A stretch of 64,000 nt of DNA from Fidelibacterota bacterium 408169 (GTDB lineage: Bacteria; Fidelibacterota; Marinisomatia; Marinisomatales; TCS55): positions 64,017 through 128,016 of the forward strand of contig NNSG01000001.1 of assembly GCA_002256485.1 (NCBI GenBank), in the 5' to 3' direction. The translations under genes and the position numbers were made by a program. Positions 42,583 to 47,129 of this stretch are shown here, one piece after another (position 1 is the stretch's first letter; every line of letters starts with the position of its first letter). Below the pieces are notes generated by a model. That model was given only the letters and a program-made list of their open reading frames with translations. It had not been told where the DNA came from and did no database searches.

Positions 42583-43710
42583 CTATTCAAGAACATGAAT
42601 ATTATTTTCAGAACAAATTTCCTTTAACTTTTTTGGCCAAACTGTTACACTGACTTCACCCAAGTGGGCTTTTCGTAGAAGATACATATACGTTCTGGAT
42701 TGTCCAATTCCTCCTCCGATTGATAGGGGAATTTCATCATTTAATATCGCCTGATGGTAGGGGAGATTAAGATCATCTTCTTGTCCGGATAATTTCATTT
42801 GTTCTACGAGAGTTTCTTTCGTAACGCGTATTCCCATAGACGTTAATTCATGACGTCTTTTTGTTACCGGATTCCAAACAAGAATATCACCGTTTAAGCC
42901 GTGGGTCTTTTTACCTTTAGTGGAAACAGTTTCCGTAATCCAATCATCGTAATCAGCAGCGCGCATTTCATGGGGAAAACCATCATCCAATACGGATCCG
43001 ATTCCTATAATAAAAACAGCAGGATATTCTTGGATAATTTTCGTTTCCCGTTGTTTTCTTGGAAGGTCTGGATACATTTCCAGTATTTCTTCTGCATGAA
43101 TAAATGTTAATTCTGCAGGTATATCCATGTATTGATCTGTTTTTAATTGAGGGAATTCTTCTTGCGCATATCTTCCTGCTTCGTAAATCACGTTCCATAT
43201 TTTTTTAACGGTTTTTGTCAAATAATCCAATGTACGATCATTTTCTGTAATTACTTTTTCCCAATCCCATTGATCAACGTATGAACTATGATCATGATCC
43301 AGAAAATAATCTTTTCGAACAGCTTTCATATCTGTACACAATCCTTCATGAACTTTACAATCGAATTGTTTTAGTGCCATCCGTTTCCATTTTGTTGCAG
43401 CTTGGACAACTTGTGCCTTGATACGTTTTTCTAACCCTAACCCACAGGGAAATTCAACAGGTGTTCTTGATCCGTCCCTATCCAGCATATCATTTACACC
43501 GCTGTCTTTGTCAACGATTAGAGGTACTTGCACCATTTGCATATTTAATGCTTCGCAAAGATGTTTTTCAATATAGTTTTTTACATTATACACTGCACGC
43601 ATAGTTCCCATCGGTGTTAATAACGAAGAATAGTTTTTTGGTAATTGAGCTGCTACGTCATTGTAATTTCCAATTCCCGGTCCGGCTAGATCTGCTTGTT
43701 TATTATTCAT
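42583..43710 (-). CDS. asnA: Aspartate--ammonia ligase
   Basis: QAATKWKR, HSSYVDQWDWE, RAADYDDW, GLNGDI, SMGIRV, SIGGGIGQSR; GGAGA precedes ATG 43710. Confidence 0.95.
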   Translation of the reverse strand: MNNKQADLAGPGIGNYNDVAAQLPKNYSSLLTPMGTMRAVYNVKNYIEKHLCEALNMQMVQVPLIVDKDSGVNDMLDRDGSRTPVEFPCGLGLEKRIKAQVVQAATKWKRMALKQFDCKVHEGLCTDMKAVRKDYFLDHDHSSYVDQWDWEKVITENDRTLDYLTKTVKKIWNVIYEAGRYAQEEFPQLKTDQYMDIPAELTFIHAEEILEMYPDLPRKQRETKIIQEYPAVFIIGIGSVLDDGFPHEMRAADYDDWITETVSTKGKKTHGLNGDILVWNPVTKRRHELTSMGIRVTKETLVEQMKLSGQEDDLNLPYHQAILNDEIPLSIGGGIGQSRTYMYLLRKAHLGEVSVTVWPKKLKEICSENNIHVLE

Positions 43711-43768
43711 GAGTGAATCTCCGTAATTGAGGTTTCGCATTTAGTTTGTTTTTAAAATATTCAAAATT

Positions 43769-44116
43769 TTATACCCACCAAAATGTACCAATCTTTCGGC
43801 TGGTGCGGATGTAAATTATCCAAAATGTTCCAAGAAGTATTAAATTAATCCAACCATTAAAGGAAGTAATCATTTTCAATGTAAATGGCCAAATAAGGAG
43901 TATCTCTCCCCAAAAATTGTAGTATAAACCAGTTATGAAATGTATGAGCCAAATAATCATAAATGTATATGTCAAAACTTTACCTTCGTAGATATCCATT
44001 CGCCACATGCGACAATTTGGACATCGCAGGGCTGTTGTGATTATTTCAGATTTACACCAATAACATGTATTGTGTGATTTATCCGAATGTATATCCTTCT
44101 GGTAAATCTGTTTCAT
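43769..44116 (-). CDS. Hypothetical membrane protein with N-terminal zinc ribbon
   Basis: CYWC...RCPNC followed by hydrophobic segments; start uncertain (overlaps the next gene). Confidence 0.55.
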   Translation of the reverse strand: MKQIYQKDIHSDKSHNTCYWCKSEIITTALRCPNCRMWRMDIYEGKVLTYTFMIIWLIHFITGLYYNFWGEILLIWPFTLKMITSFNGWINLILLGTFWIIYIRTSRKIGTFWWV

Positions 44117-44672
44117 TTGCTTCTTCCGGTACCCATGAAAGGTCTAGAATTGTGAAAGTGGGATTTGTTGTATTGAAAATTGGAATTACCTTCATACCAA
44201 TCTTCGGTTCTCCAACAGAGAGATATCCCATCAATATTGTAGGAACTCCTTCAAACTCTACATTAACAAACCGTATTGGTTTTGGTAGTGTATTGAATGC
44301 TCCGGTGCGTTCAGTAATCATGAATGTATGAACAGTTGCTCCTTTTTGAGCAGTTTCGGTCATATCTACAATTGTATTTTTACTCAAGCAATCCGGGCAA
44401 TGAATTCTGAATGGAATAAAGATTGATCCATTTGCTTCGCAATTAGAATTATCACAGCGAGTACCTAAAAGTTTTCCTTGGCCTAACCCTTCAAAAAATG
44501 GAGCTTCACCCCCATACATATGAACATGAGTTAAATCACGAGGGTTGGTAACGCCCATTAATTCACCATCTTCATTTCGGATTGGTTCATTAGGATATCC
44601 GTAATGAAATTTCCCCTCAAAGCGATAACGTCCGTTTTCAACTTTTACTGTTCCACGATCATTTGTATTCAT
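44079..44672 (-). CDS. DUF35-type Zn-ribbon/OB-fold protein
   Basis: FFEGLGQGKLLGTRC...HCPDC, OB-fold C-terminus; ATGA overlap with the thiolase-fold gene. Confidence 0.85.
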   Translation of the reverse strand: MNTNDRGTVKVENGRYRFEGKFHYGYPNEPIRNEDGELMGVTNPRDLTHVHMYGGEAPFFEGLGQGKLLGTRCDNSNCEANGSIFIPFRIHCPDCLSKNTIVDMTETAQKGATVHTFMITERTGAFNTLPKPIRFVNVEFEGVPTILMGYLSVGEPKIGMKVIPIFNTTNPTFTILDLSWVPEEANETDLPEGYTFG

Positions 44673-46096
44673 GATTCAGTCCTTTCTAATTGGTGGTCCG
44701 GGTGAACCAGAATTGTTGCGGTTACATGTGATCCCACTCCAGCATGGCTGATAGCTAACCCGCGTTTCGCGCCATCGACTTGTAAATTAGTCCAGTCATC
44801 CGGTTTAGATCGGCCGAAAAGATCCCATTTTGATTGATCTTCGTGCATTTCTGCCCAACGTCCCCAAATATGCTGTCCCACTTCTATGGTCTGCATAATT
44901 CCGGTTGCGCCCACGGCATGCATATTGCCAATTAATCCTCCTGATAAATTAGAAGGCAGTTTTCCAGGTTCACCAGTTTTTGGATTTGTAAGATAACAAT
45001 CTCCCGATTCAACATAGGTTCTACCTTCACCGTAGGGACGGATTCCAATATCTTCATATGTTTGTATATCACTTATGGTAAATGCATCATGCAATTCCAC
45101 GAGGTCAAAATCTTCAGTGGGATCAATAACACCTGCCATTCTATATCCATAATACGCTGCCATTCTTGCTGCCAGAAATCCGGTAAATCCTGGATAACGA
45201 TCGCCACCAGGAAATCGATCACCTAAATCTTTATATTGATCTGGTGATTCATTGGGTAATAATGGTATTTCCATATCTCTGCGATCTGCGACGCGTAATG
45301 TATGACTGCCTGCAGCAACATGAATCTCTAATGGATTATCTGTCAATTCATTGGCTGTTTTTTCATCACATAGAATTGCACAAGCTGCACCGACACTCAT
45401 TAGACAGCAATCCAACGCTCGAAGAGGGTAGGCGACAACAGGTGAGTTTATTACATCATCCACAGTTATATCCATGGGGCCTTGAGCATGGGGATTCATA
45501 CGGGCATAGCCGCGGTTTTTAACAGCGATTTCAGCCATGGTTTGACGAAATGAATCTTCTTTTTTACCGAACACTTGCCAATATTTTTGAGCCATGACAG
45601 CATAATATCCCGTATAAATATGACCTAAAGGTGTTTCCCAATCTTTATCTGCCGCAGAAGCAATATAATTATTGCCTTCATCTGTTGGAACTTCATCCAT
45701 TCGTTCCCAACCCATAGCCAGAACACAATCTGAATATCCTGATGCAACTGCTTTGAACGCTTCCCAAAGAGTGGATCCGCCCGTTGCTCCACCTGTTTTA
45801 ATACCCACATTTCCCAATGGATCTAATCCAAGTCTGTCATGTATGACAGATTCACCTAAAAGCTGGTCACCAAAATGATCTGCAAAGTGACCATAGTAGC
45901 ATGAATGGATGTACTCTTTGAGTTCAGCGGGAGATTTATCTATAAATTCTGCTGCTTCAACAAATGCATCAATGACCAGTTCTTCCGTACGTTTTTCCGG
46001 AATTGAGCGGCCGAATTTTGACATTCCACCGGTAACAAGATAAACAGGTCTTTGCATTTTAGGAGTTTTTAGTTGGCGTTTACTAAATTTGATCAT
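44669..46096 (-). CDS. SCP2/Ltp2-type thiolase-fold protein lacking the nucleophilic Cys
   Basis: ELHDAF, NLSGGLIGNMHAVGATG; KTGGATGG at the position of the (E/N)xACASG motif. Confidence 0.85.
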   Translation of the reverse strand: MIKFSKRQLKTPKMQRPVYLVTGGMSKFGRSIPEKRTEELVIDAFVEAAEFIDKSPAELKEYIHSCYYGHFADHFGDQLLGESVIHDRLGLDPLGNVGIKTGGATGGSTLWEAFKAVASGYSDCVLAMGWERMDEVPTDEGNNYIASAADKDWETPLGHIYTGYYAVMAQKYWQVFGKKEDSFRQTMAEIAVKNRGYARMNPHAQGPMDITVDDVINSPVVAYPLRALDCCLMSVGAACAILCDEKTANELTDNPLEIHVAAGSHTLRVADRRDMEIPLLPNESPDQYKDLGDRFPGGDRYPGFTGFLAARMAAYYGYRMAGVIDPTEDFDLVELHDAFTISDIQTYEDIGIRPYGEGRTYVESGDCYLTNPKTGEPGKLPSNLSGGLIGNMHAVGATGIMQTIEVGQHIWGRWAEMHEDQSKWDLFGRSKPDDWTNLQVDGAKRGLAISHAGVGSHVTATILVHPDHQLERTES

Positions 46097-46266
46097 AATA
46101 AATCTCTTTTAATGTAAGTGTGAGTAAGTGGGTGGAAATCATTTAGTTAATTGCTTCATATAATTTATAAGAAAAATTACAAAAAGGACATGACATAGAT
46201 AAATAAAAAAAGAAGATAAACTGGGATTATTTTATTTTCTAATCCCTATGAATGGATAAAACTAAT

Positions 46267-47028
46267 TCAATCTGTCCATGAGGGTAAGCGTTTTTCAAGA
46301 AATGCAGATAAGCCTTCCTGTCCTTCTTCTGAAGCGCGTAAATCAGCTAATACTTCTGCAGAATTAATTTCGTCCATATTTCTGCAATATTCTTTGAATT
46401 CTGATACGGCTTGTGGACTGGCTTTAATTAGTTGTTTAACAATTGAGTTGGTAGTTTTGTCGAGTTCATTTTCTTTAACAGAATAATGAATGAGACCAAT
46501 TTTTTCTGCATATTTTCCATCGAATTGTTCTCCGGAAATACCCAAAGATCTAAAATGAGAATGACCAATTTTCTTAACTGTAAATGGTCCTATTATTCCT
46601 GGGATGATACCTATTAGAATTTCACTTAATGAAAAAATAGTCTTTTCATCAGCTACAACAATATCACACACAGTACACAGACCAAAACCTCCGCCAAAAG
46701 CATGACCGTGTATTTTTCCTACAACTGCTTTTGAACAACGATCAACTGCAAAATACATTTCTTCTAATTTTATTCCTTCATTCACATTTTCATTCCTATT
46801 CATTAAACCAGAATTTTTAATGTGGTGTAGATCTGCACCTGCACAAAATGACTGCCCATTTCCTGAAAGAACAATGATTCGAATTTCCGGATTTCTATCC
46901 AATTCACAGAAAATGTCTGTTATTTCCTGTATCATGATTGAATTCATCGCATTTCGAACTAACGGGCGATTTAATGTTACGGCTGCTAAATTGTCCTGAA
47001 TATTTAAATGTAATGTCTTGTATTTCAT
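46267..47028 (-). CDS. Enoyl-CoA hydratase (methylglutaconyl-CoA hydratase-like)
   Basis: LNRPLVRNAMN, FCAGADL, HGHAFGGGFGL, SEILIGIIP, EGQEGLSAFLEKR. Confidence 0.9.
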   Translation of the reverse strand: MKYKTLHLNIQDNLAAVTLNRPLVRNAMNSIMIQEITDIFCELDRNPEIRIIVLSGNGQSFCAGADLHHIKNSGLMNRNENVNEGIKLEEMYFAVDRCSKAVVGKIHGHAFGGGFGLCTVCDIVVADEKTIFSLSEILIGIIPGIIGPFTVKKIGHSHFRSLGISGEQFDGKYAEKIGLIHYSVKENELDKTTNSIVKQLIKASPQAVSEFKEYCRNMDEINSAEVLADLRASEEGQEGLSAFLEKRLPSWTD

Positions 47029-47103: not shown

Positions 47104-47129
47104 AAAAAAGGGTGCAAGATGCACCCTTT
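47104..47129 (-). terminator. Intrinsic terminator downstream of the PPIase gene
   Basis: AAAGGGTGCA-aga-TGCACCCTTT, 10-bp arms, with a T-tract on the minus strand. Confidence 0.8.

Follow-up and report, generated by a model that had tools for sequence, protein, structure and literature searches.

A thiolase-fold protein without catalytic cysteines and its DUF35-like partner: a candidate C-C lyase of leucine catabolism at the genomic place of HMG-CoA lyase

The locus

The stretch of DNA analysed here (hereafter the window) comprises 64,000 nucleotides of the genome of Fidelibacterota bacterium 408169 (assembly GCA_002256485.1, contig NNSG01000001.1, positions 64,017 to 128,016 of the forward strand). 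It contains three adjacent genes on the minus strand, which encode a crotonase-fold enoyl-CoA hydratase of the LiuC type (ECH; 46267-47028, 253 aa), a Cys-less thiolase-fold protein for which a role as subunit of a C-C lyase is proposed below (THL; 44669-46096, 475 aa) and a DUF35-like Zn-ribbon/OB-fold partner (DUF35L; 44079-44672, 197 aa). THL and DUF35L overlap by an ATGA at 44669-44672, a sign of translational coupling, and a gap of 170 bp, in which no terminator-like site was found, separates ECH from THL. Both the overlap with a Zn-ribbon/OB-fold gene and the distance to a hydratase-like gene had been pointed out in an earlier reading of this DNA (the original prediction) and are confirmed. 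A terminator-like hairpin (47107-47129, minus strand; consensus match only) lies between a ppiD-like gene and ECH, which suggests that ECH, THL and DUF35L form a transcription unit of their own. ECH matches PF00378 in Pfam (166.6 bits) and carries a single catalytic Glu (GGGFGL...LSEI), while its NCBIfam scores fall under the equivalog cut-offs.

Loss of both catalytic cysteines

Read on the minus strand, the codons ggt att aaa aca ggt GGA gca acg ggc gga specify G-I-K-T-G-G103-A-T-G-G, and HMMER aligns this segment of THL (ikTGGATGG) to ieAACASGG of the solved archaeal thiolases 7yvy and 6esq, from which it follows that Gly103 (GGA codon at 45788-45790) occupies the position of the thiolase nucleophilic Cys. 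The central claim of the original prediction, a thiolase fold deprived of its nucleophile, is thus borne out, as is the claim that HDAF and the His loop ending in VGATG are retained. HDAF (H336 to F339; 45080-45091, minus strand) aligns to HDAF/HDCF, and NMHAVGATG (391-399) to GHPVGATG, the segment M392 to G399 (44900-44923, minus strand) being the equivalent of the GHPxGATG loop of thiolases, with its His kept. The counterpart of HDAF reads HDCF in SCP2 thiolases (PMC12329534), YDHF in Ltp2 and YDCY in Sal; in THL it contains neither the acid/base Cys nor the catalytic Tyr and retains the oxyanion-hole His.

That Gly103 is not a sequencing accident follows from conservation, since KTGGATGG (100-107), HDAF, M392-H393 and the clade-specific SHAG (S450-H451-A-G453; 44738-44749, minus strand) do not vary among 25 homologues drawn from several phyla of bacteria and archaea. 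The active-site loops KTGGATGG, HDAF, MHAVGATG and SHAGVGSH are the most strongly conserved parts of the family, in which the oxyanion-hole residues His336 and His393, as well as Cys231 (in DCCLMS), never vary. Judging from the alignment of motifs, His451 would stand two residues ahead of the oxyanion-hole Gly, where classical thiolases have the acid/base Cys of their CxG motif. Compared with the archaeal thiolases (~390 aa), THL has ~85 extra residues, in an insert at roughly 262-305 and in a C-terminal extension.

An independent Cys-less lineage with a DUF35-like partner

Over its full length the NCBIfam model NF004982 (PRK06365), a 'thiolase domain-containing protein' with no assigned function, scores THL at 688.5 bits (cut-off 695). 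Homologues 78-99% identical to THL occur across Marinimicrobia/Fidelibacterota, Cytophagales, Planctomycetes, Desulfobacterales, Gammaproteobacteria, Thermoplasmatota and Promethearchaeota; the family has members in more than 576 species-level genomes, and at 50% clustering it collapses to few clusters. Literature searches found no published account of it, probably because all 80 retrieved loci come from metagenome-assembled genomes (MAGs). GC content is 41.3% over THL (window positions 44001-46000), versus 33-36% in the flanking 2-kb windows; taken together with ~80% identity between bacterial and archaeal proteins, this suggests a recent horizontal spread of the cassette.

Gly likewise takes the place of the nucleophile in the nearest relatives of the family (35-47% identity, 420-490 aa), which have (A/S)DHF, xRxxDR and SH(A/G)G(T/V)G in common with THL; remoter matches are ordinary thiolases with E(A/S/N)ACASG, HDCF and HNxGG. 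Pfam, PDB and Foldseek searches agree that THL has a thiolase fold. Kinship to Ltp2 and Sal, the known Cys-less members of the fold, was judged from HMMER and Foldseek rankings. In HMMER, the best PDB matches are the archaeal 7yvy and 6esq (117-118 bits), followed by SCP2 thiolases (99), BbsB (98), Sal (59), PhlC (56) and Ltp2 (45), and Foldseek searches with the THL model return 6esq, 6et9 and 7yvy at ranks 1-3, BbsB at 4, Sal at 41 and Ltp2 at 46. These orders and the motifs (HDAF versus YDHF/YDCY) make THL an independent Cys-less lineage that belongs to neither the Ltp2 nor the Sal family, so that 'Ltp2-like', the label given in the original prediction, does not stand as a statement of family membership.

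Ltp2 and Sal nevertheless provide the closest functional precedent, being DUF35-dependent thiolase-fold retro-aldolases that convert a 3-hydroxyacyl-CoA into a carbonyl compound and an acyl-CoA (PMC12329534). The Ltp2-ChsH2 complex (Thermomonospora curvata, PDB 6OK1; also Mycobacterium tuberculosis) shares with THL a thiolase fold lacking the nucleophilic Cys and needs a DUF35 partner, where THL has its DUF35-like one. It acts on the steroid C3 side chain, cleaving a tertiary 3-hydroxyacyl-CoA to a ketone and an acyl-CoA after an acyl-CoA dehydrogenase (ACAD) and a hydratase, which is the order proposed here for THL. T. curvata Ltp2 relies on Tyr294 (of YDHF) and on Tyr344 as general acid (PMC12329534), whereas THL has HDAF, and the HMMER match to 6OK1 spans only THL residues 102-262. 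In addition, the DUF35 partner of Ltp2 is a domain of a MaoC hydratase in a steroid context, whereas that of THL is free-standing and found with a crotonase hydratase in a leucine context. Sal-Shy(DUF35) of Comamonas testosteroni (PDB 9MYR) likewise shares with THL a Gly at the nucleophile position and a DUF35 partner, and performs a retro-aldol cleavage of the bile-acid C5 side chain to acetyl-CoA and a carbonyl product, as would THL. Its dyad of Tyr302 and Cys304 (YDCY; PMC12329534) is, however, missing in THL, and its substrates are secondary-alcohol steroids. Closest to THL are the DUF35-paired archaeal acetoacetyl-CoA thiolases (Methanothermococcus thermolithotrophicus 6ESQ/6ET9, Pyrococcus furiosus 7YVY), of which 7YVY also reads HDAF, but these are real thiolases that retain the nucleophilic Cys (AACASG), whereas THL has Gly103 and the clade-specific DHF, LRxADR and SHAG motifs. 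Thiolase-fold aldolases with a DUF35 partner are therefore known already; if our reading is correct, THL would add a new set of residues and a new role in central metabolism.

For the partner itself the original prediction held in part. DUF35L matches DUF35 proteins of known structure (3irb with E 4.7e-7, 9myr_B, 6esq_E) and has a conserved four-Cys ribbon (C-x4-C...C-x2-C), but its Pfam matches (PF01796, 19.6 bits; PF12172, 19.0 bits) remain under the gathering thresholds. It carries a conserved N-terminal extension of ~55 residues, is 54-98% identical to its homologues (median 71%) and directly follows THL in 73-75 of the 82 loci included in a neighbourhood analysis. DUF35 proteins have been described as scaffolds in archaeal thiolase/HMGCS and fatty-acid synthase complexes (bioRxiv 10.1101/2024.07.05.601840; PMC12329534), and with both catalytic cysteines gone one could imagine that THL is a dead pseudo-thiolase serving as scaffold or regulator of another enzyme. 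This is highly improbable in view of active-site loops that stay invariant at ~80% overall identity across domains, and of the failure to find at these loci any conserved catalytic partner gene other than DUF35L.

Exchange of cassettes at a syntenic locus

Comparison with related genomes shows what the pair of THL and DUF35L (hereafter the pair) stands in for. In one genome of the same genus (G070) and three of the same family (G192, G195 and G066) the gene order is AccA-thioesterase-MTase-EamA-[MCCbeta-HMGCL-ECH]-PpiD-UDG-SacDH, where MCCbeta is a subunit of 3-methylcrotonyl-CoA carboxylase (MCC) and HMGCL is 3-hydroxy-3-methylglutaryl-CoA (HMG-CoA) lyase. The block of ECH, HMGCL and MCCbeta is present in seven further genomes. 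In the window the order is AccA-thioesterase-MTase-EamA-AsnA-orf115-[DUF35L-THL-ECH]-PpiD-QOR-UDG-SacDH, and another THL locus (L023) reads PpiD-ECH-THL-DUF35L-EamA-4HBT-AccA, a clean two-for-two gene exchange. ECH of the window is 68.5% identical to its syntenic counterpart in G070, 59-63% to those in G192 and G195 and 48% to that in G066, and the G070-type gene overlaps a canonical HMG-CoA lyase gene and precedes MCCbeta. Synteny thus identifies the window ECH as a LiuC orthologue and shows that THL and DUF35L lie in place of HMGCL and MCCbeta. No residues were found that separate LiuC-type hydratases beside THL from those beside MCC. HMG-CoA lyase (LiuE/HMGCL, NF004283), which catalyses the type of reaction proposed for THL, occupies the same slot beside LiuC and has a complementary distribution, is a metal-dependent TIM barrel that is not homologous to the two-subunit, thiolase-fold THL system.

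Two further genes belong to the window version of this locus. One is asnA (42583-43740, minus strand; TIGR00669, 311 bits) and the other, orf115 (43769-44116, minus strand), encodes a protein of 115 aa that has a zinc ribbon (CxxC...CxxC), is predicted to contain 2-3 membrane helices and finds no match in Pfam or NCBIfam; the gene shares 38 nt with the 3' end of DUF35L. Both sit between DUF35L and EamA in the window strain and in L015, and are not found there in L016 or L023.

Phyletic distribution

The exchange seen at this locus extends to whole genomes. Of 201 genomes sampled evenly from the phylum, 46 carry THL and 54 carry MCCbeta (called from a homologue at E <= 1e-80), and none carries both (Fisher p=7.5e-8). 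HMGCL scores above its cut-off in 20 of the 201 and coincides with THL once, in the window's own genome (Fisher p 0.05). Within the window's own family (20 genomes), nine have THL only, eight HMGCL only, one both and two neither (p=0.005), and genus g50 provides a second independent switch, with a liuBCDE cluster in G107 and G115 and THL in their congeners. Outside the phylum, HMGCL exceeds its cut-off in one of 35 pair-bearing genomes, and a canonical HMG-CoA lyase is found in 2/81 pair-bearing genomes (46 within and 35 outside the phylum). MCCbeta was not found in the pair-bearing gammaproteobacterial, deltaproteobacterial, Krumholzibacteriota and Lentisphaeria genomes or in several archaea; orthologues 61-68% identical occur in 13 pair-bearing Thermoplasmatota, and one of 45% in a Cytophagales MAG. 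The pair therefore behaves as an alternative to HMGCL in every lineage examined and to MCC plus HMGCL in most. That MCC, too, is missing from most carriers suggests a non-carboxylated substrate and acetone as product.

The window's own genome (95% complete) contains neither MCCbeta nor MCCalpha; it does encode four canonical thiolases and an acetoacetate-CoA ligase. Its HMGCL match (C46:34705-35595, i.e. L010:1441-2334; 310 bits), which lies beside a LeuC-like gene (aconitase/IPM-isomerase-type large subunit), was considered as a canonical lyase that would contradict replacement and was discarded as a lower-scoring paralogue. All five HMGCL-positive genomes of the phylum without MCCbeta have matches of 294-310 bits, whereas matches of at least 345 bits always accompany MCCbeta, and this paralogue probably has a function other than cleaving HMG-CoA in the leucine pathway.

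A fused AccA-AccD carboxyltransferase was likewise rejected as a substitute for MCC, because it occurs alike in pair-bearing and MCC-bearing genomes. In the window's own genome it is a protein of 583 aa with the alpha part first (C47:22110-23858; L096:9110-10861). The fused gene directly follows etfB, etfA and a gene for a 672-aa Fe-S oxidoreductase, is confined to the window's order and is found with or without MCC or THL.

Gene context in other phyla

Across the 82 loci, the conserved neighbours of the pair are an ACAD (14 loci) and an ECH (17-19 loci), and 3-hydroxyacyl-CoA dehydrogenase genes are not enriched. Those hydratases that lie beside THL in Marinimicrobia fall into two subtypes unrelated to each other, a single-Glu LiuC type, to which the window ECH belongs, and a classical two-Glu type, which argues for a relation of hydratase and subsequent lyase that is independent of hydratase ancestry. 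Less frequent neighbours are GctA/B-like (glutaconate) CoA-transferase genes at six Thermoplasmatota loci (best PDB matches 1poi, GctA, and 5mzw, AibA), a bona fide acetoacetate-CoA ligase gene at five loci from distinct phyla (940-960 bits, cut-off 521), genes for XRE-cupin regulators and, at one locus, a BKACE gene. The last of these loci, from a Promethearchaeota MAG (L006, 7479-17175), is densely packed with genes for thiolase-fold enzymes that depend on DUF35, THL and DUF35L being followed by BKACE, two SCP2-type thiolase-fold genes, two standard DUF35 genes and two crotonases; neither of the two SCP2-type products has a Cys aligned at the nucleophile position.

Two loci place the pair within a leucine pathway. 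In a gammaproteobacterial MAG (G001), one operon contains genes for an AsnC-type regulator, the E1alpha, E1beta and E2 subunits of branched-chain 2-oxoacid dehydrogenase (BCKDH), an isovaleryl-CoA dehydrogenase (IVD; 613 bits to the IVD of PDB 4kto versus about 300 to short-chain acyl-CoA dehydrogenase, SCAD), THL, DUF35L and a protein like leucine dehydrogenase (LeuDH), and the genome encodes neither MCC nor HMGCL. Two carboxyltransferases of G001 were rejected as MCC, one (317 bits) being the GcdA encoded in a cluster for glutaconyl-CoA decarboxylase, the other (585 bits) adjoining methylmalonyl-CoA mutase in a propionyl/methylmalonyl-CoA cluster. The former cluster (L095, 6680-11209) specifies an anaerobe-style glutaryl-CoA route, in which a glutaryl-CoA dehydrogenase of the non-decarboxylating type is joined by GcdA and by GcdB, a Na+ pump. 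In a Thermoplasmata genome without HMGCL (G230), a contiguous run on one contig encodes a LiuC-type ECH, MCCalpha, MCCbeta, an ACAD (on the opposite strand), GctA-like and GctB-like proteins, THL and DUF35L.

Three independent genomic settings therefore tie the pair to the leucine branch, and this is what speaks against a C-C lyase that would act on some other short 3-hydroxyacyl-CoA and be linked to leucine indirectly, for example by splitting 3-hydroxybutyryl-CoA to acetaldehyde and acetyl-CoA, or 2-methyl-3-hydroxybutyryl-CoA to acetaldehyde and propionyl-CoA. Such a lyase would agree with the archaeal ACADs next to the pair, which are nearer to SCAD/Bcd than to IVD, with the two unrelated ECH subtypes and with the lack of 3-hydroxyacyl-CoA dehydrogenase enrichment, which fits an order of ACAD, hydratase and aldolase; it would also agree with the gene for a B12-binding mutase domain directly upstream at one locus (L007) and with the BKACE gene after the pair at L006. 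However, the exchange with HMGCL and MCCbeta at the locus, the operon of BCKDH, IVD and LeuDH genes and the liu cluster of G230 point to the leucine branch in particular, and we regard this alternative as rather unlikely.

Gene context alone would also suit an acetoacetyl-CoA (3-ketoacyl-CoA) thiolase that either dispenses with a covalent Cys or finds its nucleophile elsewhere, in Cys231 of DCCLMS or in a residue of the partner, since acetoacetate-CoA ligase, CoA-transferase, ACAD and ECH genes, and one leucine operon, are all compatible with thiolysis. The oxyanion-hole His residues are kept, Cys231 is invariant in the family, and it could be speculated that the enlarged protein and its partner offer a second CoA site. 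Yet the wider Cys-less clade has no Cys in common, the second Cys of DCCLMS being replaced by Ser or Ala in P0143, P0145 and P0153, and 7yvy, itself a real thiolase, shows Ala-Ser where DCCLMS has its two Cys. Moreover, the window's own genome already possesses its four canonical thiolases, the replacement of HMGCL and MCCbeta at the locus and their mutual exclusion with THL would go unexplained, and G230 and G001 would be left without an enzyme after 3-methylcrotonyl-CoA or HMG-CoA. A thiolase is thus quite unlikely.

A further alternative is a strict analogue of HMG-CoA lyase, which here would convert HMG-CoA to acetoacetate and acetyl-CoA, with 3-methylglutaconyl-CoA or HMG-CoA coming from a source other than MCC. 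The acetoacetate-CoA ligase and GctAB-like CoA-transferase genes beside the pair (at five and six loci, respectively), the combination of LiuC, both MCC subunits and the pair without HMGCL in G230, a probable MCC and the pair without HMGCL in the Cytophagales MAG (G003) and, in the window's own genome, an acetoacetate-CoA ligase and an adjacent ECH of the single-Glu LiuC type are all in favour of it. However, MCCbeta is missing from the window's own genome and from all 46 pair-bearing genomes of the phylum, as well as from G001, G002, G004, G006 and the deltaproteobacterial genomes, and no other carboxylase was found to stand in for it, the fused AccA-AccD being equally present in pair-bearing and MCC-bearing genomes. 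HMG-CoA in MCC-bearing archaea and Cytophagales could instead enter the mevalonate pathway. As 67 of the 81 pair-bearing genomes lack MCC, HMG-CoA cannot be made from leucine in these, and for the window's own genome we consider this version unlikely.

Proposed function

Our preferred interpretation is that THL and DUF35L together form a non-thiolytic retro-aldol C-C lyase for tertiary 3-hydroxy-3-methylacyl-CoAs, which would serve leucine catabolism as a non-homologous replacement of HMG-CoA lyase, a proposal to which we give an even chance of being right. It builds on the loss of both catalytic cysteines, the conservation of the family, the coupling to the partner, synteny and phyletic patterns; the chemistry, the substrates and the roles of THL residues described below are inferred. 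A retro-aldol cleavage of the Ltp2/Sal type would be, by analogy, the simplest chemistry for a Cys-less thiolase fold. The original prediction had envisaged a hydratase and lyase acting on a branched, HMG-like tertiary 3-hydroxyacyl-CoA or on steroid or isoprenoid substrates. The former idea gains support from the positional orthology of ECH to LiuC and from the HMGCL-MCCbeta slot, with the chemistry itself still conjectural, whereas nothing points to steroids or isoprenoids.

For the window's genome, a leucine shunt without biotin or ATP can be outlined, although its products, acetyl-CoA and acetone, are put forward more tentatively than the lyase activity as such. An ACAD would oxidize isovaleryl-CoA to 3-methylcrotonyl-CoA, which the LiuC-type ECH would hydrate to 3-hydroxy-3-methylbutyryl-CoA (HMB-CoA), and THL/DUF35L would then cleave HMB-CoA to acetyl-CoA and acetone. 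The hydration step is feasible, as indicated by the use of Myxococcus xanthus LiuC to convert 3-methylcrotonyl-CoA to HMB-CoA in engineered HMB pathways (PMC13614307). Where MCC is missing, leucine can supply no tertiary alcohol other than HMB-CoA. Where MCC has been retained, in marine Thermoplasmatota and one Cytophagales MAG, the same enzyme may split HMG-CoA to acetyl-CoA and acetoacetate, which would explain the neighbouring acetoacetate-CoA ligases and CoA-transferases and would require tolerance for the distal substituent of the substrate.

At the active site, the lack of a Cys at position 103 would mean that no acyl-enzyme intermediate is formed. The carbonyl fragment would fill the space left by the missing Cys, and the acetyl-CoA enolate would lie in the conserved oxyanion hole, stabilized by His336 and His393. 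Deprotonation of the 3-hydroxyl group would fall to a base, which might be His393 or the Arg/Asp specific to the clade (in LRVADR), and His451 of SHAG may protonate the enolate.

Several observations weigh against this interpretation or narrow it. The residues that Ltp2 and Sal use for catalysis are missing, so that the assignment of acid and base in THL is speculative, and in the AlphaFold2 model (pTM 0.79, mean pLDDT 67) the active-site loops are of low confidence. In a UBA6531 genome whose THL is 98% identical to that of the window (L016, 7301-12599), the order is PpiD-THL-DUF35L-EamA with no adjacent ECH and a 258-bp gap where the window has that gene; the content of the locus therefore varies even within one species-level group. 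The acetoacetate-CoA ligases and glutaconate-CoA-transferase-like neighbours point to acetoacetate, hence to HMG-CoA as substrate, rather than to acetone, and the 13 Thermoplasmatota with both MCC and the pair limit the exclusion of MCC to some lineages. Genome counts are not phylogenetically independent, and all pair-bearing genomes examined are MAGs. Finally, the window's own genome has no canonical IVD. No IVD more than 44% identical to the canonical enzyme was found, however, in any sampled Marinimicrobia, including those with a complete liuBCDE cluster, so that its absence from this genome is uninformative and a different ACAD must serve the isovaleryl-CoA step in the phylum.

Implications

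Should the proposal prove correct, a gene pair that goes by the annotation 'acetyl-CoA acetyltransferase/thiolase' in the genomes of hundreds of uncultured species would encode a different enzyme, and a third lineage of thiolase-fold aldolases, with catalytic residues of its own, would act in central amino-acid catabolism and not in steroid degradation. HMG-CoA lyase would then clearly have been displaced by a non-homologous enzyme, and in most carriers a biotin- and ATP-dependent carboxylase would have been displaced as well. Acetone was the largest fraction of the emissions of 16 estuarine strains (PMC13677163). If acetone is the product, the pair would provide a gene marker for this climate-relevant marine volatile and an enzymatic source of bacterial acetone in seawater. 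In Vibrionaceae, leucine is reportedly converted to acetone with both methyl groups of the isopropyl moiety retained, as Nemecek-Marshall et al. are said to have found in 1999. The shunt would be a candidate for that pathway, which we mention as a lead only, and the reverse reaction, from acetone and acetyl-CoA to HMB-CoA, would be of biotechnological interest. It is conceivable, at the same tentative level as for the window's genome, that an acetone shunt has displaced MCC and HMGCL in abundant uncultured marine heterotrophs, among them Marinimicrobia, marine Thermoplasmatota and Desulfobacterota. If the pair is indeed such a lyase, the use of leucine and peptides by Marinimicrobia and marine archaeal MAGs would have to be reconstructed differently.

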